NCBI GenBank assembly: GCA_964344565.1
Contig: CAYFNT010000019.1
Location: 6,196-70,195, forward strand
DNA length: 64,000 bases
Direction: 5' to 3'
Source: an uncultured bacterium
GTDB lineage: Bacteria; Krumholzibacteriota; Krumholzibacteriia; JACNKJ01
The position numbers were made by a program, and so were the translations under genes. A model generated the notes under the pieces. It ran no database searches, was not told the origin of the DNA, and worked only from the letters and a program-made list of their open reading frames with translations. Each line of letters opens with the position of its first letter. The first letter of the stretch is position 1. Positions 30,551 through 56,265 of this stretch are shown in pieces.

Positions 30551-30880
30551 ATGCCCAAATTGCCGCGGTCCGACGCCGCACTTCAGGCCCTGGCGCAGCG
30601 ATTCAAGCTGCTTGCCGAACCTGTCCGTCTGAGGATCCTCGAGATCCTGGCGGAGGGGGAGAAGTCCGTCCAGGAAGTCACCGCCGCCTCGGGCCTGCGC
30701 CAACCGCACATTTCCCGCCAACTTGCGATACTCGCCGAATCCGGCGTCCTCCTTCGACGTAAGGAGGGGACTCGCGTATACTACTCGCTCAGCGATTCCC
30801 ATATTTCCGCGCTTCTGGACGCTGCCGGCCGCTCGCTCCGCGAGCACCTCACCGGGCGTCTGGAGCAACTGGAGGAATGA
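30551..30880 (+). CDS. ArsR/SmtB family transcriptional regulator
   Basis: LLAEPVRLRILEILAEGEKSVQEV...SRQLAILAESGVL winged HTH, 109 aa. The stop overlaps the start of the M16 peptidase gene (ATGA). Confidence 0.85.
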   Translation: MPKLPRSDAALQALAQRFKLLAEPVRLRILEILAEGEKSVQEVTAASGLRQPHISRQLAILAESGVLLRRKEGTRVYYSLSDSHISALLDAAGRSLREHLTGRLEQLEE

Positions 30881-33800
30881 TGAAGAACCCTCTGATTCCC
30901 GTTATCGTCGTCCTGGTCGTCCTCGCCATGTTCATGTTGGTGTTCAAGTCCGGCGGGGATGGGCTGGAGAGCCTCGAGCATGGCCAGGTCATCCACGGTT
31001 TCGCCGTGGAGAATCTTTACGTGGACGGTGCCGATCGGGCCATGGGCGCGCGCTTCATCTCCGAGGAGAAGGGCTTCATCGTCGACCTGCTTCAGATCCA
31101 GTCGGTGCCCCAGGGATTCATCTGGGTGAAGAGTCCGCCGGATTCCGATCGCGGCGAACCCCACGCCTGCGAGCATCTGCTTCTGGGCAAGGGTCGTCAG
31201 GGACGCTACGTGGCGGCGCTGGAGGCCATGACCCTCGGCAACGCCAGCGCCTGGACCGCGCAGACCAACACGGTCTACCACTTCAACACCCTGGGCGGTG
31301 AGGAGAACTTCTTCGCCACCTTCGAGGCGCGGCTGAACGCCCTGGTGAATCCCGATTTCACCGACGAGGAGATTCGCCGCGAGATCGTCCATCTCAGCGT
31401 GGTGGAGGATGCCGGCGGCGAGTTGGGCCTCGAAGAGAAGGGTTCGGTCTACACCGAGATGGTGAGCAGTTTCGAGGGACCGGGCTATCCGCTCTGGGGC
31501 GGCGTGGGCGACATGCTCTTCGGCAAGGACCATCCCCTGGCCAACAGCTCCGGCGGACATCCCGACTCCATGCGCAGCATGACACCCGAGCACATGCGCG
31601 ACTTCGTGGCGGATACCTACCGGCTTCCGAACATGGGCATCATCGTGTCGGTGCCCAGAAGCTTCGAGATGGAGGATCTGCTCGAGGAGTTCGAAGGCAT
31701 CCTCGATCGCGTGCAGCCGGGCAAGCTCGAGAGCGATTTCGTAGGCATGAACGCCCTGAACCTTCCCCCGATCACCGACGCCGATCCCGAAGGCGCCGTG
31801 CGCATCGCCGCCTACCCCAGCGACAATCCCGAAGATCCCGGGGAGGTGCTCGTGGTCTGGCCGCCTCGGGATCCTCTGGCGAACTTCGACCGCTTCATGC
31901 TGGAGACCTTCCTGGACGGTTTCGCGGGCGGCCCCGGCACCGAGCTTTACGACCTCTTCATCAATTCCGAAACACGAAAGGTGGAGCTGGGAGCCAGCGC
32001 CGTATGGAGCTACGTGCCCGAGGAGCCCGGCTCGCCGGTCTTCTTCGGCCTGGACGGCCTGGACAACCGCAACATCGAGGGACGCAGCCTGCGGAGGGCG
32101 CGGGGGCTCATCGTGGAGGAACTGCACAAGCTCTACGAATTGGAATCGGGTTCGGAGGAGCTGGACGACTTCAACGATCGCGTGTCCAGCAATCTCGTGC
32201 AGACCCGCAAGTACCTCGAGCGCGCCTTGAATTCGCCGCCCCAGTTCGGCTTCCGCATGAGCGGCATGGCCAGACGCTGGCAGGACATCATGGCCTTCCT
32301 CGAGCTGGACGAGGGATTCCGCAAATCCCTGGTCATGGACTCGCATTTCGTCCGGGCCGAGGAACTCCTCGCCGGCGATGAGAACTTCTGGCAAGAGCTG
32401 CTGGATCGCTGGGGCCTGCTCGATGCGACGCCATACGTCATGGCGGTGCATCCGGATCCCGGCATGCTGTCGGCGGCCGAGGAGGCCAAGCGGGCCCGTC
32501 TGTCCGCGGCCATCGAGGGGATGAAGGACCGATTCGACGAGGATGAGGCCCAGGTTGCCCTGGCCAGGTTCCGCGATGAGTTCGATGCGAACACGGCCGA
32601 ACTCGAGGCCATCGCCGCCGAGGAGACCCTTCCCGGATTCATGGACGATCCGCCCATGGAGATTGACGAGCAGCTCCGGTACGAGACCGTGGCACTTCCG
32701 GGCGGGGCTGAGATGGTGGCCGCCACCTTCGAGAACATGAGCACTGCGACCCTGCAGGTCAGTTTCGGCCTTCAGGCCGTACCCAGCGACAAGCTCGTCT
32801 ACCTGCCCCTGCTGCCCTACCTCATGCGTGGCGTGGGCGTGGAACTGGACGGCGAGCGCATCGAGTACGACGACATGGAGAAGCGTCTGCGCGCGGAGCT
32901 CCTGTCCTACCGGGCCGACCTGACCACCAATCCCGAGACCGGCCGCGCCGAGTTGGTGTTCAGCTTCGGCGCCAGCAAGCCCGACGAGATCGATCGCGGT
33001 TTCGAGTGGATGCGCGCCTCGCTCACCGCGCCGCTGCTCGACGGGGACAACCTGTCCCGCATCGGCGACCTGCTCGACCAGCGCCTGCACCGCATGCGTA
33101 CGCGCATGCAGGGCAGCGAGGAATCCTGGGTGAGCGATCCGGCCGCGGCCTATCGCTACCAGGACGATCTCCTCTATCTCAGCGCGGGATCCTTCCTCAC
33201 CCAGACCCATCAGCTGCTTCGACTCAAGTGGCGCTTCACCGAGCCCGACGGCGAGGGCGAAGCGTATCTGGACGAGCTCGAGCGGCGCGGCCGCGACGCC
33301 TCGCGCGAAGAACTCTTGGCCCTGCTCGACGGAGCGCCGGAGGAAGGCATCCGGGCGGACCTCGCCTCCTCCCTTCGGTCGAGTCTCCCGGCTCTGCCCG
33401 ACGCCTCGATATCCGATGATTGGGCGCGGCTCTGCGCCACACTGCGCAGCGAGCTGGCCACGCCGCCGGATCAGGCCTTCACCGACCTGCGCGCTTTGCT
33501 GGACCTGTTGGCCCGCGCCGAGAATGCCCGCCTGTCCCTGGTGTCCAACTCCCGGGATCGCGGCGAGAAGCTCGGCGTCATCGAAGCCTTCCTGGCGGAC
33601 TTCTCCGGCAAGGGGGCGCCGGCCGCACAGAAACACCACCGTCGGGACTACGTGCTGGATCGCTATCGCGAGCGCAGCGGCATGACGGACAAGCCGATCT
33701 ACGCGGGACTCGTGAATGAGAACACGCGCAACGGCACCCTCATCTTCTCAGCCCGCATGGCCGAAGCCTGGCAGGCCGACCGCGAGTCGGCCCTCAACGC

Positions 33801-34377
33801 CCTGACCGGCCGGCTCTTCGGCGGCGGCGGCGGGCACGGTTTCTTCATGCGCACCTGGGCCGCCGGCCTGGCCTACAGCAACGGATTCGGCTATCGCGAA
33901 AACACGGGCATGACCACCTACTACGCGGAGCGTTGCCCGGACGTGGCCGAAACCATGCGCTTCGTGGTGGGGGTGCTCGAGGACACGGAGCTGGACGCCA
34001 GCTTCAAGGACTATTCCATCGCCGGCATGTTCGGACGCTCCCGCGCCGCCGCAGGCTACGAATCCCGCGGGCAGGCCATGGCCGCCGACCTCACGGACGG
34101 TTTCGGGCCGGAGCGCGTCCGAGACTTCCGCGGACAGGTCATGGATCTGCGCGGATGGGGCGAACTCCTGCCCGACATGCAGTCCCGCCTGGATGCAGTC
34201 TACGGCAGCGTGCTCATCGGCTACGGCGAACCATTGTCCGAGAGTCGCGACGGCGTCTTCTTCCTCATCGGTCCCGAGCCTCAATTCGAATCCTTGGAGA
34301 CCTACATCGCCACGGTTGAAGAGCCGCAGGCCGTGCATCGACTCTATCCCCGTGACTTCTGGCTCGTGGACCTGTAG
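30877..34377 (+). CDS. Large membrane-anchored M16-family (pitrilysin/insulinase-like) zinc metallopeptidase
   Basis: Inverted zincin motif HACEH (HxxEH) followed by NASAWTAQTNTVYHFN and downstream Glu residues. N-terminal signal-anchor MMKNPLIPVIVVLVVLAMFMLVF. 1166 aa. Confidence 0.75.
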   Translation: MMKNPLIPVIVVLVVLAMFMLVFKSGGDGLESLEHGQVIHGFAVENLYVDGADRAMGARFISEEKGFIVDLLQIQSVPQGFIWVKSPPDSDRGEPHACEHLLLGKGRQGRYVAALEAMTLGNASAWTAQTNTVYHFNTLGGEENFFATFEARLNALVNPDFTDEEIRREIVHLSVVEDAGGELGLEEKGSVYTEMVSSFEGPGYPLWGGVGDMLFGKDHPLANSSGGHPDSMRSMTPEHMRDFVADTYRLPNMGIIVSVPRSFEMEDLLEEFEGILDRVQPGKLESDFVGMNALNLPPITDADPEGAVRIAAYPSDNPEDPGEVLVVWPPRDPLANFDRFMLETFLDGFAGGPGTELYDLFINSETRKVELGASAVWSYVPEEPGSPVFFGLDGLDNRNIEGRSLRRARGLIVEELHKLYELESGSEELDDFNDRVSSNLVQTRKYLERALNSPPQFGFRMSGMARRWQDIMAFLELDEGFRKSLVMDSHFVRAEELLAGDENFWQELLDRWGLLDATPYVMAVHPDPGMLSAAEEAKRARLSAAIEGMKDRFDEDEAQVALARFRDEFDANTAELEAIAAEETLPGFMDDPPMEIDEQLRYETVALPGGAEMVAATFENMSTATLQVSFGLQAVPSDKLVYLPLLPYLMRGVGVELDGERIEYDDMEKRLRAELLSYRADLTTNPETGRAELVFSFGASKPDEIDRGFEWMRASLTAPLLDGDNLSRIGDLLDQRLHRMRTRMQGSEESWVSDPAAAYRYQDDLLYLSAGSFLTQTHQLLRLKWRFTEPDGEGEAYLDELERRGRDASREELLALLDGAPEEGIRADLASSLRSSLPALPDASISDDWARLCATLRSELATPPDQAFTDLRALLDLLARAENARLSLVSNSRDRGEKLGVIEAFLADFSGKGAPAAQKHHRRDYVLDRYRERSGMTDKPIYAGLVNENTRNGTLIFSARMAEAWQADRESALNALTGRLFGGGGGHGFFMRTWAAGLAYSNGFGYRENTGMTTYYAERCPDVAETMRFVVGVLEDTELDASFKDYSIAGMFGRSRAAAGYESRGQAMAADLTDGFGPERVRDFRGQVMDLRGWGELLPDMQSRLDAVYGSVLIGYGEPLSESRDGVFFLIGPEPQFESLETYIATVEEPQAVHRLYPRDFWLVDL

Positions 34378-34510: not shown

Positions 34511-34969
34511 ATGATAACTCGGATTCTCGATGTTCTCGTTTCCCGACTCAACGAACACCTTCAATCCGAGTTGGGATTGCCTTCGAATCTTGTCGGCCTC
34601 GCACCGCCGCCGAAAGACGGTTTGATGGAAAAGTCGGATCGCGTTGATCTGACATTTCTGAGCATCGAACCGGATCCGCATTCAAGGAACTCGGGGAGTT
34701 CGCCTGCTGCCTTGAATCTGGATGTGCGAGTGGCTTTCAGTTTTCACGGCGAATCCTACGGCGCGGCCCTCGATCTGGTGTATGCGGTTCTGGATTTCTT
34801 CCATCGGAACGTCGTTTTCGAAATCGATGCGCAGGAGACTTCCAACGGTCTGAGGGTGCAGGTCGAACAGCAGAGCCCATCGACCGAGGAAGTCAACTAT
34901 CCATACAGGGTCGTTTACCCAACCCCGGCTCCGCGACTCGACTACCGCATTCGAATCCAGGAGATGTAA
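34511..34969 (+). CDS. DUF4255-like protein (Afp16/Pvc16 N-terminal-domain-like component of contractile injection systems), tentative
   Basis: 152 aa and a GAGGAGG RBS. The start MITRILDVLVSRLNEHL resembles DUF4255 family starts. Sits immediately upstream of the sheath gene. Confidence 0.5.
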   Translation: MITRILDVLVSRLNEHLQSELGLPSNLVGLAPPPKDGLMEKSDRVDLTFLSIEPDPHSRNSGSSPAALNLDVRVAFSFHGESYGAALDLVYAVLDFFHRNVVFEIDAQETSNGLRVQVEQQSPSTEEVNYPYRVVYPTPAPRLDYRIRIQEM

Positions 34970-34975
34970 TCGAAG

Positions 34976-36445
34976 ATGGCACCCAAGAAGAGAACTGCTA
35001 GATCGCGTCGCCTGAAGACTCCCGGCGTTTATGTGGAGGAAGTTTCGTTCTCGGTGCCATCGGTGGCCGAAGTGGAAACCGCCGTTCCGGCGATCATGGG
35101 ATACGTGGAGAGGGCCGACGTACTTTTCGAACCCGTAGCAGTCAAGTCCATGGTGGAGTTCCGGGAGTTGTTCGGTGGGGAGGCGCCGCTTCGCATCGAC
35201 GAGGTGCGGGTGGATCAGAACCATGCCTTCGAGTCGGCGCGCATTCGCGCAGGATCTCATCTGCACGACAGCATCCGTCTCTTCTACGAAAATGGCGGCG
35301 GGGGCTGCTACGTGGTTCCGGTGGGGACCTACTCGGATCGCCCCGAACTGGAGCACTTCGAGCGCGGCCTCGCCCGTCTTGCGAAGGAGGATCGCGTCAC
35401 ACTGCTCCTCTTTCCCGACGCCGTGCTTCTGAGCAAGGATCTCTACGCGGTGCAGAAACTCGCCCTGAAGCAATGCGGCAAGCTCCAGGATCGTTTCGCG
35501 ATCCTCGATCTCCATGATATCCGGGAGATGCCCAGTCCTCTGGTCTCGGGTTTCCGATCGGAAATCGGGATCGAAAACCTGAAGTATGGAGCCGCCTACC
35601 TTCCTCACCTCGAGTACCCGTCCGGACGATCCCTACGCTTCCGTGATTTGAAGGGAAAGCTGCGGCGAGGGGAAGAGTCGATGAGGATTGGCGATCTGAT
35701 CGAGGATCGCGAAGAGTTCCGCGAGCTTGCTCAGAAACTCGAAGGGCTCATCGATGAGTATCCAGACGGCTCACCCACGGCTGAGGAGAGCGAACTGGAG
35801 ACGGAACTGAGGGCCGTGTCGGCCAGGTTCGGGGCCCTGCTCGGCGAAATCGAGATGCTTCCGTCATTCGTTCCTCCGAGCGGAGCGGTGGCGGGCCTGT
35901 ACGCCTTGACGGACACCACGCAGGGCGTCTGGAAGGCCCCGGCGAATGTGGCCCTGGGAGGCATCACCGGAGTGGCATGTTCCATCGACAGTCACGATCA
36001 GGATAGCCTGAACGTGGATCCCGCATCCGGAAAGTCCATCAATGCGATCCGTCCCTTTATCGGAAAAGGTTGTCTGGTCTGGGGGGCGAGAACCCTGGCT
36101 GGAAACGACAACGAGTGGCGTTACGTGCCGGTTCGGCGCTTTGTCATCATGCTGGAGAAGTCCCTGAAGAAGTCGATCCAGTGGGCGGTCTTCGAGCCTA
36201 ACGATGCGAAGCTCTGGGTCAAGGTGAAGGGCATGATCGAGAACTTTCTCACCGTGAAATGGCGCGAGGGGGCCCTGATGGGCAGCATGCCGGAATATGC
36301 ATACTACGTCAAAGTCGGCCTGGGGCAGACCATGACCGAACTGGACATTCAAGAGGGCCGGCTGAACATCGAAGTGGGCTTCGCGCCGTTGAAGCCCGCC
36401 GAGTTCATCGTTCTGAAGTTCTCCCACAAGATGTTAGAGAGCTAG
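34976..36445 (+). CDS. Contractile phage-tail/eCIS sheath protein
   Basis: N-terminal KTPGVYVEEV. The C-terminal sheath domain shows GVWKAPANVALGGITGV, GCLVWGARTL, NEWRYVPVRRFVIMLEKSLKKSIQWAVFEPND and FLTVKWREGALMG, all hallmark Phage_sheath motifs. Confidence 0.85.
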   Translation: MAPKKRTARSRRLKTPGVYVEEVSFSVPSVAEVETAVPAIMGYVERADVLFEPVAVKSMVEFRELFGGEAPLRIDEVRVDQNHAFESARIRAGSHLHDSIRLFYENGGGGCYVVPVGTYSDRPELEHFERGLARLAKEDRVTLLLFPDAVLLSKDLYAVQKLALKQCGKLQDRFAILDLHDIREMPSPLVSGFRSEIGIENLKYGAAYLPHLEYPSGRSLRFRDLKGKLRRGEESMRIGDLIEDREEFRELAQKLEGLIDEYPDGSPTAEESELETELRAVSARFGALLGEIEMLPSFVPPSGAVAGLYALTDTTQGVWKAPANVALGGITGVACSIDSHDQDSLNVDPASGKSINAIRPFIGKGCLVWGARTLAGNDNEWRYVPVRRFVIMLEKSLKKSIQWAVFEPNDAKLWVKVKGMIENFLTVKWREGALMGSMPEYAYYVKVGLGQTMTELDIQEGRLNIEVGFAPLKPAEFIVLKFSHKMLES

Positions 36446-50438: not shown

Positions 50439-52301
50439 ATGGCCGAGATCCGACTCACGGTGAAGGGGCTGGCGGGATGGGAGGACCCTCCCCGCGTGGC
50501 TCGCATTCTGCGCGGGGTTCCGGCCGTGGAGGACGTGTCGGTGGACGCCGCCAGCGGGCAGGCCTGGGCGCGCGGTCGCGGGCACCTGCCGCTTCTCGGC
50601 ATGCTGGAAGCGCTTCACCGCGAGGGTTACGAGGCGGAACCCGCCACCGAGGACACGCTCTTCCCATCCATCTTCCGCGACGAGCAGACGGTGCTCCGCA
50701 GGATGCGCGGCGCGCTTCTGTGGACCCTCGCCCTGCTGCTTGTGGATCTCCTGATGCCCGCCGGGCGCATCGCCCTGACCGCGGGGATGCTTCTGGTGCT
50801 GGGCTTTCTGTCCACCACCGGGCGAGCCCTCTGGCGGACCGCCGTGCCAATGCTGCGTCGTGGACGTTGGGGCGAGACGCCCCGCGCCGCCATCGCGCTT
50901 CTGCTGCTCAGCGTTTCGCTGCCCCTCGCCTGGATGAACGGCGAACAGGTCTTCTTCTCCCTGCCGGCCCTGGTCGGCACCCTGCTCCTGCTCTCGCGAT
51001 GGCTGGAGCTTCGCTGGAGGCGCGTCCTGCGCAACGATCTGAAGGACGGCGACTCGCGCGCTTCCATCTTGCAGGAAGCCTTCGGCGGCGCCGACGCCCC
51101 CGAGGGGGCCAACAAACGGGTGGGGGACGCGCTGGCCATGGCCCTGCCCATCCTGCTGCTGCTCTGGCTGGCGATGTCGCTCGTCCTGCACTTGGGAAGC
51201 GCGGCGATTCTGCGCGGCCTGGCCGCCGTCCTTCTGGCGGGAGGCAGCCGCGGGCTGACCCTGTCCTATCCCTCGGTGATGGTGGCCGGACTGACGCGGG
51301 CGTTCTCCTTCGGACTGGTTTTTCGCCGGGCCCGCATCCTGCGGAACTTCCATCGCGCCGACATCCTGGCCACCGATCGGGTGGGCGTACTCACCCGAGC
51401 TCAGGCCGAGGTGGAGTCGGTGAAGGTGCTGGGCAGTTCTTCCACCGATCGAATCTACTCGGAGGCGGCGGGGGCCCTGGCCGAGGCGGCCCATCCCCTG
51501 CTTCAGGCTCTTCATCGTTTCCTTTCGGATCGGGCCGAGACCGAGAGCCATCCGCTCTCGGTGATCAGACGGCCGGGCGGCGGCCTCGAGGCGGAGACCG
51601 CCGGACGTAATCTGCTCATCGGACATCCCTGGTTCCTGCAGCGGGAAGGGGTGGACCTCGAGGAGGTGCGCGAAGTCCTGGAGCACTTCGGCGAACAGGG
51701 ATTGTCCATCGTGACCCTCGCGGTGGACGGAAAGATGCGCGCGGTTTTCGGCCTTCGCGTTGACGCGCGCCCCGAAGCGCCGAGCCTCATACGGCGCATC
51801 GCCGAGTTCGGTCTCGCGCCCGTCCTGCTCACCGGCGAGAGCGAGGGCCTCGCCCGCCGGGTGGCCGAGAGCAACGGCATGAGCGAGTTCCACGGCGGAC
51901 TGGGAAGCGACGAACGCGCCCGGGTGCTGCGGGAGAAGACCCAGGCCGGAGCGAAGGTGGCTGCCGTGGGCATCGGCAGTCACGACGCGCCCGTGCTGGC
52001 GGCGGCCGACTTCCCCGTGTCCCTCGGCCCTGAGGCTCCCGCGGAGAAGCCCGGGCTCATCCTTCCCTCGGGACGGCCGGCCGATCTCCTGGACGCCCTG
52101 GCCTTCTCGCGCCATGTGGACGCACTTCGCCGGCAGAACTTCTGGCTCGCCGGCGGACTGCTTCTGCTCGCCCTCATCCTGGCCTTCTCCGGACTCCTCG
52201 GCCCTCTCGGATCCACGGCCATGCGCGTCGTCGCCGTGCAGGCCCCCCTTGCCAACAGTCTGCGCACCCACTCCTTCCGCTTCGAATCCTCCTCTCAGTA
52301 G
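50439..52301 (+). CDS. P1B-type (heavy-metal) ATPase homolog with degenerate catalytic motifs (probable pseudo-ATPase)
   Basis: HMA-like N-terminal domain without CxxC (GLAGWED). TM6 reads GSRGLTLSYP where CPC is expected. DRVGVLT replaces DKTGTLT. GIGSHDAPVLAAAD replaces GDGxNDAPALAAAD. LLTGES replaces MLTGDN. The actuator domain is largely missing. Confidence 0.7.
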   Translation: MAEIRLTVKGLAGWEDPPRVARILRGVPAVEDVSVDAASGQAWARGRGHLPLLGMLEALHREGYEAEPATEDTLFPSIFRDEQTVLRRMRGALLWTLALLLVDLLMPAGRIALTAGMLLVLGFLSTTGRALWRTAVPMLRRGRWGETPRAAIALLLLSVSLPLAWMNGEQVFFSLPALVGTLLLLSRWLELRWRRVLRNDLKDGDSRASILQEAFGGADAPEGANKRVGDALAMALPILLLLWLAMSLVLHLGSAAILRGLAAVLLAGGSRGLTLSYPSVMVAGLTRAFSFGLVFRRARILRNFHRADILATDRVGVLTRAQAEVESVKVLGSSSTDRIYSEAAGALAEAAHPLLQALHRFLSDRAETESHPLSVIRRPGGGLEAETAGRNLLIGHPWFLQREGVDLEEVREVLEHFGEQGLSIVTLAVDGKMRAVFGLRVDARPEAPSLIRRIAEFGLAPVLLTGESEGLARRVAESNGMSEFHGGLGSDERARVLREKTQAGAKVAAVGIGSHDAPVLAAADFPVSLGPEAPAEKPGLILPSGRPADLLDALAFSRHVDALRRQNFWLAGGLLLLALILAFSGLLGPLGSTAMRVVAVQAPLANSLRTHSFRFESSSQ

Positions 52302-52394
52302 GTTCTTTTTACCGATTGCTCACGGCCTTCGCGTTGACGGCGAGGCCTCCTCTGTGCTTTTTCATGGGAGCTAACTCGCTACAAGGACGGACCT

Positions 52395-52637
52395 ATGTCT
52401 CAGGATCATAAAGTCGGAATCGAATACTGCGTGGTCTGAAACTACGAACCGCGCGCCGCCGGTCTGGCGGCTGCCATCCAGAAACGCTTCGGCATAAGCA
52501 CCGAGTTGATCAAGTCCGGGGGCGGTGTCTTCGAGGTGGAATTGGACGGGAACGTGATCTTCTCCAAGAATGCCACGGGCCGATTCCCGGACGAGCCTGA
52601 AGTCTTCGAGGCCATCGAGGCCCGACTCGGGATCTGA
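52395..52637 (+). CDS. SelW/Rdx-family selenoprotein (CxxU) with an in-frame UGA at 52437-52439 read as selenocysteine
   Basis: ATG at 52395 gives MSQDHKVGIEYCVV-U-NYEPRAAGLAAAIQKRFGISTELIKSGGGVFEVELDGNVIFSKNATGRFPDEPEVFEAIEARLGI. This matches the bacterial SelW-like pattern IEYCxxUxYxPRA...SGGVFEV...GRFP. The reading frame continues after the TGA to a TGA at 52635, which overlaps the next ATG. Confidence 0.7.
52455..52471 (+). other. SECIS-like hairpin GCCGCC-GGUCU-GGCGGC downstream of the in-frame UGA
   Basis: The stem-loop begins 16 nt after the UGA. Its apical loop GGUCU is identical to the E. coli fdhF SECIS loop, and the spacing of about 24 nt from UGA to loop is typical. Confidence 0.6.
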
Positions 52638-53845
52638 TGTTTCACAGCAAAGACTACTACAGAAAGCTCGACGAGATCCTCGACCAGATCGAGGACGTCC
52701 GCGACGCGCATCGTCATCTCGCCGGCATGGTGGACCGCATCGTCGAGACCTTCAGCGACGATCTGGGCATCACCAGCGGACGCCTCTACCTGCGCGACGG
52801 GGGCGACTACAAGCTGGAGCACTGCATCGGACGGGATCCCTCGACCTTGAAGGGTCTGCGAATTCCCCTGCAGTACCCGCCCGTGCGCGCGGCCCACGAA
52901 AGCCGCATCGTGGTCATGGACGACGAGTTCCCCGGCCGCGATCCTGTCATCGAGAGCCGACTTCAGATCTCGCACTACGCGGCCTTCACCCTGCACAGCG
53001 GGGCATATCTGGTCAGCTTCGGCCTGAACTCCGAACTGGACCAGGACGATCAGGTCTTCGCCCTCAGCGCCATCCGCCACGCCCTTTCCCTGCGCTTGCG
53101 CGAGGCCAGCATGGCGGAGGAACTCGACCAGGCCGAGGCCATCCAGCTCAGCCTTCTTCCCTCCCGGAGCCCCCAGTTCGAGGGATACGAGATCGCCGCC
53201 CGCACGGAAGCGGCCGAGGCCGCGGAGGTGGGCGGGGACATCCATGACTTCATCGAGCTGGGGCCGGATATCCTCGGCATCGCGGTGGGGGACGCCAGCG
53301 GCCACGGTTTGCCCGCGGCCTTGCAGGCCCGCGACGTGGTCACGGGACTGCGCATGGGCGTGGAAAGGGAGCTGAAGATCACGGCAGTGATCCGTCGGCT
53401 CAATCGCGTGATCCACGCCAGCAATCTCTCCACGCGTTTCGTGAGCCTCTTCTACGGGGAGCTCGAGAGCAACGGGAACCTGGTCTTCGTGAACGCCGGG
53501 CATTGCGAGCCCCTCCTCCTCCTGCCGGGTGGCGAGGTGGACAGGCTCAGCTCGGGAGGCGTGATTCTCGGGCCCACGCCCGATGCCGAGTACCACCGCG
53601 GGCATGTGCTCATGGAGCCCGGAGCCCGGTTGCTGCTCTTCAGCGACGGTCTGACCGAAAGATGGGGCGGCCAGGAGGAATTCGGAGAATTGCGACTTCT
53701 GGAACTTTTCCGCGCCTGCGAGGGAATGGGCGCCGAAGAGACGATCGAACGTATCTTTAAGGAAATCAGAGACTTCGGAAAGACCGCGCCCTGGGAGGAC
53801 GACGTGACGGCCGTGGTGGTACACCGAAAGTTACCTAGAGATTAA
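52637..53845 (+). CDS. PP2C-type serine phosphatase (SpoIIE/RsbU family) with an N-terminal GAF-like sensor domain
   Basis: GDIHDF, GDASGHG and FSDGLTE PP2C motifs. Start overlaps the selenoprotein stop (TGATG). Confidence 0.8.
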   Translation: MFHSKDYYRKLDEILDQIEDVRDAHRHLAGMVDRIVETFSDDLGITSGRLYLRDGGDYKLEHCIGRDPSTLKGLRIPLQYPPVRAAHESRIVVMDDEFPGRDPVIESRLQISHYAAFTLHSGAYLVSFGLNSELDQDDQVFALSAIRHALSLRLREASMAEELDQAEAIQLSLLPSRSPQFEGYEIAARTEAAEAAEVGGDIHDFIELGPDILGIAVGDASGHGLPAALQARDVVTGLRMGVERELKITAVIRRLNRVIHASNLSTRFVSLFYGELESNGNLVFVNAGHCEPLLLLPGGEVDRLSSGGVILGPTPDAEYHRGHVLMEPGARLLLFSDGLTERWGGQEEFGELRLLELFRACEGMGAEETIERIFKEIRDFGKTAPWEDDVTAVVVHRKLPRD

Positions 53846-53935: not shown

Positions 53936-54388
53936 GTGCTCTACTCAAAAGCCAGCGAATACGCGATCCGCGCCATGGTTTTCCTCGCCGAACAGCCCGA
54001 AGGCGAGCTGATCCAGCTCAAGGAGGTCGCGGCCAGGGAAGACATTCCCTTCCATTTCCTGGCCAAGACCATGCAGATCCTGTCTCGGCGCGGCCTGGTG
54101 CGAAGCCATCGCGGGCCCCGCGGAGGATTCTGCCTGGCCCGAGACGCTGGAGAGATCACGCTCTACGACATCGTCGATCCCATCGACCACATCACCAACT
54201 ACGACGAGACCTGCATTCTCGGCATCCATCCCTGCAATGACGAGGCGGCCTGCCCGCTCCACGACGAGTGGAAGAAGATCCGTCGATCCATCCGTTTGAC
54301 CTTGGAAGGCAAGAGCTTGCGGGACATGGTGGGGCGCCTCGAGGAGAAGCGGGCCATCCTGTCCGAGATGGGCTTGACCGGCGAATAA
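53936..54388 (+). CDS. Rrf2-family transcriptional regulator (IscR-like, with Cys ligands for an Fe-S cluster)
   Basis: SKASEYAIRAMVFLA wHTH, RGPRGGF and a C-x6-C-x5-C-x2-H cluster (CILGIHPCNDEAACPLH). GTG start after GGAGG. Confidence 0.8.
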   Translation: MLYSKASEYAIRAMVFLAEQPEGELIQLKEVAAREDIPFHFLAKTMQILSRRGLVRSHRGPRGGFCLARDAGEITLYDIVDPIDHITNYDETCILGIHPCNDEAACPLHDEWKKIRRSIRLTLEGKSLRDMVGRLEEKRAILSEMGLTGE

Positions 54389-54579: not shown

Positions 54580-54608
54580 CCGAGGGGAGCGCTCCCCTCG
54601 GATTTTTC
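54580..54608 (+). terminator. Palindromic rho-independent terminator CCGAGGGGAGCGCTCCCCTCGG plus ATTTTTC
   Basis: Fully self-complementary 22-mer followed by a T tract on the plus strand. Overlaps the stop of the convergent moaB-like gene. Confidence 0.7.
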
Positions 54609-55128
54609 ATGCCCTCCGGCGCGCTTCCCTGAGAATGTGACCGATTTCGGTAAGCACGAGTTTCTCCATGGCCAGCTTGACGCCGCCGGGGGATCCGGGC
54701 ATGGCCACGATGGCCTGCTCTCCCCGGATGCCCGCCAGCGCGCCGCTGAGCATGGCCGCCGCGCCGATCTCCTCGTAGCTGAGCATGCGGAAGAGTTCGC
54801 CGAAGCCGGGCACGACCCGGTCGCAGAGTTCCTCGACCACCTCCGAGGTGCGGTCCCGCAGGCCCACACCCGTGCCGCCGCTGAGCAGCACTCCGTCGCA
54901 GCCCGCGCGATCCAGGCCGTCCAGGATGGCCTCCTCGATGGCCCGGGGCTCGTCGGGAACGATGCGCCGATCCAGGCCCTGGTGCCCCGCTTCCTCGAGC
55001 ATCGCCGCCATGAGGGCGCCGGAGCGGTCGTCCTCCAGGGTTCGGGTGTCGCTCACCGTGATCAGCACCAGGCGCAGCTCGCCCGGCGCTTCCCGGCGAT
55101 GGCTCACATGGCTGGGGGTTTCGTTCAT
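54607..55128 (-). CDS. Molybdenum cofactor biosynthesis protein MoaB/MogA family
   Basis: LRLVLITVSDTRT and LLSGGTGVGLRDRT motifs. 173 aa. AAAGGAGGAG RBS. The long upstream part of the track ORF was rejected. Confidence 0.8.
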   Translation of the reverse strand: MNETPSHVSHRREAPGELRLVLITVSDTRTLEDDRSGALMAAMLEEAGHQGLDRRIVPDEPRAIEEAILDGLDRAGCDGVLLSGGTGVGLRDRTSEVVEELCDRVVPGFGELFRMLSYEEIGAAAMLSGALAGIRGEQAIVAMPGSPGGVKLAMEKLVLTEIGHILREARRRA

Positions 55129-55185
55129 GGCTCCTCCTTTCGGAATCCATAGCACAAGGAGCCGCGCTGCGCTATCCTCCGGGCC

Positions 55186-56265
55186 ATGGACAACTCCGGC
55201 ACCGACAGCCTCCGCGCGAAACTCCTCGACTGGTTCGACCGACATCGGCGCCCCATGCCCTGGCGCGCCGATCCCAGCCCCTACAAGGTTTGGATCTCCG
55301 AGATCATGCTGCAGCAGACGCAGGTGAGCACGGTGATTCCCTACTTCGAAAGATTCGTCGAACGCTTTCCCTCGCCGAGGCATCTCGCCGAATCGGACGA
55401 GGAAGAGGTGCTCGCTCACTGGAGCGGCCTGGGCTACTACCGTCGCGCGCGCAATCTGCGCAGGGCGGCGCAGGTTCTGCTCGACGATCACGATGGACAG
55501 CTCCCCCGCGACCTGAAGGCCCTGCAGAAGCTGCCGGGAGTGGGGCGCTACACGGCGGGCGCGATCGCGTCCATCGCCTTCGGCATTCCCGCCCCCGCGG
55601 TGGACGGCAACCAGATCCGCGTGCTCACGAGGCTCGAGGCCCTCGATGGCGACCCCTCGCGCAATCCCCTCAAGGCCACCCTCTGGCGAAGGGCCGGGGA
55701 GTTGGTCGAAGGCGAACGTCCCGGCGATCTGAATCAGGCCCTCATGGAGATGGGCGCCCGCGTCTGCAAGCCGACTTCGCCGAACTGCGGGGAGTGCCCG
55801 GCGGCCGAGTCCTGCCTGGCTTTCCGGGACGGCCGGGCCGAGGAGTTTCCCCGCAAGGATCCGGCCGAGGCGCCGCGTCCCGTGCGAGTGGAAGTTGGGG
55901 TCTTTCAGCGTGGAGAGCGTGTGCTGCTCAGCCGGGGCCAGCGCCCCTTCCTGGGCGATCTCTGGAACCTGCCCTACCGCGTGCGCGACGGCGGGGGCTT
56001 CCGCGCCGAGGATTGGCGACAGCTGGGCCTGGACGCGCCCGAACTGCGCCACCTGGGCGAACATCGCATGAGCATCACGCGCTACCGCATCAGCCAGGAG
56101 ACGGTCACCGGCGATGTGGAATTGCTGGTGGGCGAGAATTTGCCCGAGTACCGATGGTTCTCCCGCCACGAACTCGGCGACCTGGGTCTGCCCGCCTTTT
56201 CCCGCAAGCTCCTTGACCGCTACTTCGAAGGCGAAGACGCGAAAAAGCCCCGCTCCAAATCCTGA
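55186..56265 (+). CDS. mutY: A/G-specific adenine DNA glycosylase
   Basis: PWR..DPYKVWISEIMLQQTQV, LPGVGRYTAG and the Cys cluster CKPTSPNCGECP, plus a C-terminal NUDIX-like domain. Confidence 0.9.
   Translation: MDNSGTDSLRAKLLDWFDRHRRPMPWRADPSPYKVWISEIMLQQTQVSTVIPYFERFVERFPSPRHLAESDEEEVLAHWSGLGYYRRARNLRRAAQVLLDDHDGQLPRDLKALQKLPGVGRYTAGAIASIAFGIPAPAVDGNQIRVLTRLEALDGDPSRNPLKATLWRRAGELVEGERPGDLNQALMEMGARVCKPTSPNCGECPAAESCLAFRDGRAEEFPRKDPAEAPRPVRVEVGVFQRGERVLLSRGQRPFLGDLWNLPYRVRDGGGFRAEDWRQLGLDAPELRHLGEHRMSITRYRISQETVTGDVELLVGENLPEYRWFSRHELGDLGLPAFSRKLLDRYFEGEDAKKPRSKS

Follow-up and report, generated by a model that had tools for sequence, protein, structure and literature searches.

The question raised by this locus is whether a TGA codon that interrupts a short reading frame acts as a stop or is read as selenocysteine (Sec). 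The frame occupies positions 52395 to 52637 of a 64,000-nucleotide (nt) stretch of DNA from an uncultured bacterium of the Krumholzibacteriota (contig CAYFNT010000019.1), the whole of which is referred to here as the window. A sequence-only reading had placed in this interval an unannotated SelW/Rdx-like selenoprotein gene, followed within its own coding sequence by a hairpin resembling that of Escherichia coli fdhF and overlapping the start of a phosphatase gene. As judged from sequence comparison, the interval is very probably a genuine gene for an 80-residue SelW-like selenoprotein (Rdx family, SelT/SelW/SelH), with the UGA at codon 15 recoded and a Sec insertion sequence (SECIS) hairpin located downstream of it (Table 1). 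The case for Sec decoding is built on comparative evidence, namely, selection acting across several phyla on the TGA, the reading frame, the N-terminal peptide, the pairing of the stem, and the loop.

An interrupted reading frame of the Rdx family

Read from the ATG at 52395, the frame consists of MSQDHKVGIEYCVV (14 sense codons), the in-frame TGA, NYEPRAAGLAAAIQKRFGISTELIKSGGGVFEVELDGNVIFSKNATGRFPDEPEVFEAIEARLGI (65 sense codons), and a stop codon, and a fresh reading of the sequence agreed with the translation proposed earlier. The in-frame TGA falls within the redox motif, the context of which is IEYCVV-U-NYEP. At the related locus L009, a stop codon stands immediately 5' of the SelW ATG, which fixes the N terminus of the protein. 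Because the Sec codon resembles a stop, the gene was skipped by gene callers. The mechanical list of open reading frames (ORFs) contained, as its sole entry in this frame, a 43-amino-acid (aa) fragment starting at TTG (52506-52637), in line with the earlier remark that the TGA hides the gene from a six-frame track, and the public gene calls for metagenome contigs with the same DNA left the interval blank, so that the description as unannotated also held. DNA identical to the window was found in metagenome assemblies of PRJEB17505 only. TGA was found to terminate 17 of the 43 confidently placed genes in the window, including the SelW-like gene itself, and the organism therefore uses the standard genetic code.

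For comparison with family profiles, Cys was substituted for U in the product. Scores of 71.2 bits against Pfam Rdx PF10262 (cutoff, 22.6), 60.7 bits against TIGR02174 CXXU_selWTH (cutoff, 34.2), and 93.9 bits against the NCBIfam model NF041051 for SelT/SelW/SelH family (seleno)proteins (cutoff, 88) were obtained. Three curated cutoffs were thus passed, bearing out the earlier assignment to SelW/Rdx-like proteins with a CxxU motif. When the 14 residues preceding the TGA were omitted, the Rdx score fell to 49.3 bits and the match began at profile position 11. These residues contribute 22 bits, and the upstream segment therefore belongs to the domain; the sequence-only reading had named its exclusion from the protein as a finding that would tell against the gene.

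Residues 6 to 75 aligned with the homologous region of the solved Rdx proteins MIEN1 (C17orf37; 2LJK), taken together with eukaryotic SelW, Atu0228 (2FA8), and SAV_2001 (3DEX), with E values of 3e-11 to 6e-08. The CxxC/U motif lined up with the CxxC of these proteins, as it did with CxxU/C in 13 homologs, and the fold expected from the homology would be thioredoxin-like, with the order beta-alpha-beta-beta-beta-alpha. Eukaryotic SelW differs in that its SECIS lies in the 3' untranslated region, while the solved bacterial Rdx members differ in being Cys forms of about 105 aa.

A genome scan, with one genome taken per species, identified 576 genomes with a SelW-like relative, the closest locus being L007, with 86% protein identity. 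Among the best 80 genome loci, the CxxU position was TGA in 79 and TGC in 1, and the short upstream peptide was also kept, which agrees with the earlier claim that the in-frame UGA is a Sec codon. Several close database homologs list W at the U position; the underlying DNA is TGA, and the W arose because the gene calls used a code in which UGA is Trp (code 4) on short contigs. Cys-form homologs also exist (P0004-P0006). The subfamily with NYEPRAAGLA after the U was found mostly in metagenome-assembled genomes (MAGs) of uncultured Acidobacteriota/Thermoanaerobaculia, Krumholzibacteria, Gemmatimonadota, and Eisenbacteria. One forest-soil contig (L090) carries tandem Rdx genes at 1234-1486 and 1506-1742, separated by 20 nt, the first being a Sec form (MSELVIEYCGM-TGA-GYQSRAAGLA...) and the second a Cys form (IEYCVVCNYYP...). 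This tandem may represent a snapshot of Sec-to-Cys replacement following duplication.

Selection on the hairpin downstream of the UGA

The hairpin comprises an upper stem of GCCGCC (52455-52460) paired with GGCGGC (52466-52471), an apical loop of GGUCU (52461-52465), and a lower stem of 3 base pairs (bp) formed by 52451-52453 with 52472-52474, with a one-base bulge at 52454. The upper stem begins at the 16th nt past the TGA, and the whole hairpin spans nt 15 to 38 counted from the U of the UGA, inside the coding sequence. The stem-loop had been proposed earlier with this sequence and at this distance, and it was confirmed by in-register conservation and by covariation, as follows.

Eighty-two distinct sequences were compared in a gap-free alignment anchored on the UGA. 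Across the six upper-stem pairs (columns 19 to 24 with 30 to 35), 93.7% of cells were paired, and compensatory double changes were observed in four of the six. Two of the pairs join wobble positions to wobble positions: pair 21:33 was CG in 64 sequences, UA in 6, GC in 4, UG in 4, and AU in 1, and pair 24:30 was CG in 77, GC in 3, and UG in 1. None of 500 shuffles matched the observed pairing values on any measure, and when the partner was slid by 1 to 3 columns as a control, pairing fell to 18 to 66%. The lower-stem pairs were weaker (27 to 76%), with 15:38 paired in 22, 16:37 in 58, and 17:36 in 62 of the 82 sequences. In the loop, G26 was invariant and U27 was at least 90% conserved (83 sequences). 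The Gly codon of the loop was GGT in 64 of 69 sequences (93%), compared with 16% of the Gly codons elsewhere in the same genes, and its third-position entropy was 0.38 bits, compared with 1.85 bits for a Gly in the GGG motif that is invariant. Selection therefore acts on the nucleotides themselves, both in the pairing and in the loop of the hairpin.

The SECIS sequence of fdhF, which was confirmed in all but 7 of 5426 E. coli genomes (5419), was folded beside the window sequence. In both elements, the base of the hairpin lies at nt 15 from the U of the UGA (an 11-nt spacer), a single-base 5' bulge lies at nt 18, the apical loop starts with GGUC(U), and the structure is located within coding sequence. 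The helix above the bulge is 3 bp long in fdhF but 6 bp long in the window, and because of this longer upper helix the GGUCU loop lies 3 nt, or one codon, farther 3' (nt 25 to 29, compared with nt 22 to 26 in fdhF). Of the earlier claim of likeness to fdhF, the shared GGUCU loop therefore stood, whereas the distance, which had been called canonical, was off by 3 nt. The bulged base is U in fdhF and C in the window hairpin, a position that is variable across the SelW-like family, and the window hairpin, unlike the fdhF element, lacks a lower helix long enough to extend to the UGA.

Among the Cys forms, a "fossil SECIS" was observed at L090:1539-1592 and L091:594-647, where GCCGCC-GGUCU-GGCGG is intact after TGC/TGT, and at the Cys form L035:6028-6081 the pairing is lost (GCCGCG-GGUUU-GGCGGA).

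Apart from the GAF-PP2C neighbor, which is found in one clade, no essential difference was seen between the window gene and bacterial SelW-like selenoproteins. These share with it a length of about 80 aa, a CxxU motif just after the first strand, the GG-F-V and FSK-GRFP motifs, a Sec form that outnumbers the Cys form, and, right after the UGA, a SECIS whose small loop contains a G. Such SelW-like CxxU selenoproteins of bacteria, with their SECIS, have been on record since 2005 (Zhang and Gladyshev; PMC1088965, PMC1794560). In the Sargasso Sea analysis, SelW-like CXXU proteins were the most abundant selenoprotein family, with 48 genes, and their SECIS elements lay just past the UGA with a G in the small apical loop (PMC1088965). 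In a later survey, SelW-like proteins were described as having few Cys homologs in Sec users, and Sec was proposed as the ancestral state (PMC1794560), which fits the 79 of 80 loci with TGA found here. The window gene is an ordinary further member of this well-described family, in an uncultured lineage.

Probable selenocysteine decoding and its alternatives

If the UGA is decoded as Sec, the hairpin 11 nt past it would recruit SelB-GTP-Sec-tRNA(Sec) to the ribosome while the UGA occupies the A site, and Sec would be inserted at codon 15. The product would take up the Rdx fold, which is thioredoxin-like, with its C-V-V-U motif following the first strand, and would probably act as a small redox protein cycling between the selenol/thiol and selenenylsulfide states.

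Several results weigh against Sec decoding at this locus. When about 50 ORFs spanning the 64-kilobase (kb) window were scanned with Pfam, no SelA, SelB, or SelD was detected, and ARAGORN and Rfam found no tRNA whatever in it, hence no tRNA-Sec; a tRNA scan of the flanks of 60 related loci likewise gave no tRNA-Sec. A search of the window for a second selenoprotein gene, based on in-frame TGA codons with coding-like flanks, returned shadow-frame artifacts only. The Rfam scan of the hairpin region gave no match at the gathering threshold or at E values up to 10, a miss that weighs little either way for an element that is short and embedded in coding sequence. The folding-energy z-scores of the hairpin (-0.46 and -0.91, in a sequence of 63% GC) were no better than chance. 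The genuine fdhF element of E. coli, with a z-score of -1.33, was likewise unexceptional, so the energy test does not discriminate and covariation was used instead. Finally, two of the three Cys-form homologs examined (L090 and L091) retain the hairpin, and the hairpin alone is therefore no proof of present-day Sec decoding. Separately, ARAGORN reported zero tRNA genes in about 940 kb (the window together with L001-L091), with its positive control working and several tRNA genes expected; this may be due to chance or to a property of the stored data.

On a different reading, translation does end at the TGA, the interval is a decaying pseudogene or a truncated Rdx fragment with an internal start, and the hairpin is a by-product of GC-rich Ala, Gly, and Leu codons. 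Relatives do carry truncated Rdx gene calls of 55 to 64 aa, the energy of the hairpin is unremarkable, and no Sec machinery was found in the 64-kb window. However, the first in-frame start past the TGA is a TTG, and the 43-aa product made from it would be devoid of the redox motif as well as of strand 1 and helix 1. In 79 of 80 species from several phyla, the frame is kept together with its TGA and the upstream peptide, synonymous sites covary for pairing, and fixation of the loop codon runs counter to codon bias. Decay yields none of these features, and a true stop appears highly improbable. Slightly less credible again is recoding of the UGA to Trp, Gly, or Cys, through an altered code or near-cognate read-through. 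Some public gene calls have Trp at the homologous TGA, but these are the code-4 artifacts on short contigs described above, in which the DNA has TGA. Against such recoding also stand the 17 of 43 window genes, the SelW-like gene among them, that end in TGA, the position of the codon at the redox Cys/Sec of the CxxC/U motif, and the selection on a hairpin of the SelB type.

The GAF-PP2C neighbor and the significance of the locus

The 402-aa protein encoded downstream contains a Pfam SpoIIE domain (141.4 bits, residues 213 to 397), and this PP2C domain matched the RsbU domain of Rv1364c, RssB, SiaA, and SpoIIE by sequence and fold (PDB 3KE6, 3F79, 6K4E, and 5UCG). Pfam GAF gave no match to the protein at E values up to 0.1, and its 120 best homologs have no GAF domain on record either. 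In the AlphaFold model, residues 1 to 175 (52637-53161) had a predicted local distance difference test (pLDDT) score of 83.5, and their top Foldseek matches were all GAF domains, namely, the free methionine-R-sulfoxide reductase fRMsr (3KSF), Lcd1 (5W10), PtsP (3CI6), and PDE2A, with a probability of 1.0 and template modeling (TM) scores of 0.60 to 0.66. The protein is thus predicted to be a GAF domain joined to a SpoIIE/RsbU-type PP2C, as the sequence-only reading had it, the PP2C part being recognized by Pfam SpoIIE and the GAF part by predicted fold and not by Pfam. The invariant GAF residues R9, R49, Y51, Y80, and E106 may mark a small-molecule binding site. The structure closest to the GAF domain, free methionine-R-sulfoxide reductase, is a catalytic GAF protein; the phosphatase family has no conserved Cys.

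With the RsbU/SpoIIE/RssB/SiaA-type phosphatases of the PPM (PP2C) family, the protein shares a SpoIIE-type PP2C domain with the invariant acidic residues and the GHG motif, and an N-terminal sensor domain followed by a long linker helix. It differs from them in that its sensor is a GAF fold unrecognized by Pfam and in that neither a STAS gene nor a stand-alone HATPase/RsbW-type kinase was found among the roughly 50 window ORFs scanned; such partners may be encoded elsewhere, and the earlier label of a partner-switching phosphatase is therefore a tentative one. To our knowledge, no characterized phosphatase of this type has a known selenoprotein partner. Distant GAF-PP2C homologs (42 to 45% identity) in Gemmatimonadota and unclassified MAGs (L097:2629-5230 and L098:3001-7251) lie near an NAD synthase gene, and an Rrf2 regulator lies near the distant GAF-PP2C in two of three contigs (L098 and the P0075 contig). 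The association of PP2C with Rrf2 may be older and broader than that of SelW with PP2C.

The terminal TGA of the SelW-like gene and the ATG of the phosphatase gene share one base, the A (TGATG), which confirmed the overlap described earlier. The same overlap was found at L007 and L092, while L008, L009, and L094 have a spacer of 3 to 5 nt. Across these six genomes, identity went down to 60% for PP2C and to 64% for SelW, and the PP2C orthologs with 60 to 66% identity bear names pointing to Candidatus Krumholzibacteria. The SelW-like and GAF-PP2C genes are likely co-transcribed, and the TGATG overlap suggests that they are possibly also translationally coupled. The block common to all six genomes extends well beyond the pair, comprising the ParA-like, P-type-ATPase-like, SelW, PP2C, Rrf2, MoCF, and MutY genes. 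Shared descent thus accounts for the adjacency, which does not by itself demonstrate a functional link. No PP2C gene was present within 6 kb at 77 of the best 80 SelW loci, and clustering of neighbors found no SelW neighbor conserved across phyla, the largest cluster covering 15 of 81 loci. The arrangement is a trait of one Krumholzibacteria-like lineage and not of the SelW-like family.

The two genes might nevertheless form a functional redox-signaling pair, in which the selenoprotein would relay oxidative or thiol stress to the phosphatase, directly or with Rrf2, and the tight coupling of the genes would mirror a stoichiometric partnership. The overlap or short spacer kept in six genomes, the location of SelW, PP2C, and Rrf2 on the same strand, and the closeness of the GAF domain to free methionine-R-sulfoxide reductase, a redox-active GAF protein, are in keeping with such a pair. 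Set against it are the descent of the entire block in common, the 77 loci without PP2C, and the lack of a SelW neighbor conserved across phyla. In addition, the four PP2C homologs that were looked up (42 to 45% identity) have no called Rdx neighbor; translation of the upstream gap at L096 and L097 revealed no hidden SelW; and the PP2C genes at L098 and on the P0075 contig are preceded, at 168 to 175 nt, by a divergent MoxR gene. The PP2C family has no invariant Cys, and Cys63 of the GAF domain is Ser in SelW-linked orthologs. Within the library of papers that was searched, none linked SelW to PP2C, RsbU, or SpoIIE. On balance, a functional pair is unlikely. A redox-switch Cys in the PP2C that would track SelW adjacency was considered and rejected, as Cys63 is replaced in the SelW-linked orthologs and the distant homologs bearing Cys290 have no upstream SelW.

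Among the remaining neighbors, the Rrf2 gene was called as 150 aa on an identical contig and is syntenic in L007-L009, L092, and L094. The gene at the position of the P-type-ATPase-like gene in the Krumholzibacteria relative L094 (1500-3680) encodes a 726-aa protein with HMA and E1-E2 ATPase domains; the window copy, at 620 to 643 aa, may be a metal pump that has diverged or degenerated. Between it and the SelW ATG lies a 93-nt spacer (52302-52394), which shares about 88% identity with its L007 counterpart. It contains the inverted repeat GGCCTTCGC...GGCGAGGCC with a T-run after it, as well as a TTGACG hexamer. These elements could act as a promoter or an operator, or could terminate the upstream gene; consensus scans of the 93 nt flagged nothing. 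A 520-aa minus-strand ORF (54607-56169) was dismissed as a GC-rich artifact, with only its C-terminal 173 aa called on identical contigs. The other features located in the window are listed in Table 1.

Table 1. Features of the window discussed in the text
Feature	Position	Strand	Remarks
SelW-like (Rdx family) gene, predicted selenoprotein	52395..52637	+	80 codons, including one predicted Sec codon, plus stop TGA at 52635-52637
Shine-Dalgarno-like AAGGA	52383..52387	+	7 nt 5' of ATG 52395; read from sequence; kept in L007
In-frame TGA, proposed to be read as selenocysteine	52437..52439	+	Codon 15, the U of the CVVU motif
Bacterial SECIS hairpin (predicted)	52451..52474	+	Minimum free energy, -15.8 kcal/mol; comparative evidence
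GAF-PP2C serine phosphatase gene, 402 aa	52637..53845	+	Pfam SpoIIE; predicted GAF fold
Rrf2-family transcriptional regulator	53936..54388	+	Pfam Rrf2, 114.6 bits; next gene after PP2C
P-type-ATPase-like gene 5' of SelW	50439..52301	+	Pfam Hydrolase, 24.2 bits; weak HAD/Hydrolase match only
MoCF_biosynth gene, 173 aa	54607-55128	-	Gene call on identical contigs
MutY-like gene	55186-56265	+	Overlaps the rest of the 520-aa minus-strand artifact ORF
Pvc16 N-terminal domain protein	34511-34969		Contractile-injection or phage-tail-like apparatus
Tail-sheath protein	34976-36445		Contractile-injection or phage-tail-like apparatus
1166-aa ORF before the Pvc16 and tail-sheath genes	30877-34377		No Pfam match

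As biology, the combination of a CxxU Rdx protein and a SelB-type hairpin has been familiar for two decades. The sole new element here is the lineage-restricted pairing with a GAF-PP2C gene, which is a generator of hypotheses and not a finding. Together with Rrf2, this pairing is the only unusual aspect of the locus and provides a weak lead with a low chance of being borne out. It is a speculative idea, and a slightly less likely one than a functional pair, that the SelW of the Krumholzibacteria-like lineage was recruited as the redox input of a GAF-PP2C/Rrf2 module, possibly with the upstream P-type-ATPase-like gene. If that were true, it would give a bacterial SelW-like protein its first assigned physiological partner and would be the first case of a PPM phosphatase controlled by a selenoprotein.

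The main value of the SelW-like gene lies in annotation and in the example it offers of overlapping protein and RNA constraints. The AAGLA peptide motif and the SECIS hairpin are written in the same nucleotides, making a clean case of dual coding in which covariation is visible at synonymous sites. Standard gene callers skip this gene and skip, truncate, or mistranslate (with Trp at the Sec position) hundreds of SelW-like orthologs from uncultured Acidobacteriota, Krumholzibacteria, Gemmatimonadota, and related MAGs, and selenium use in these lineages is therefore undercounted.

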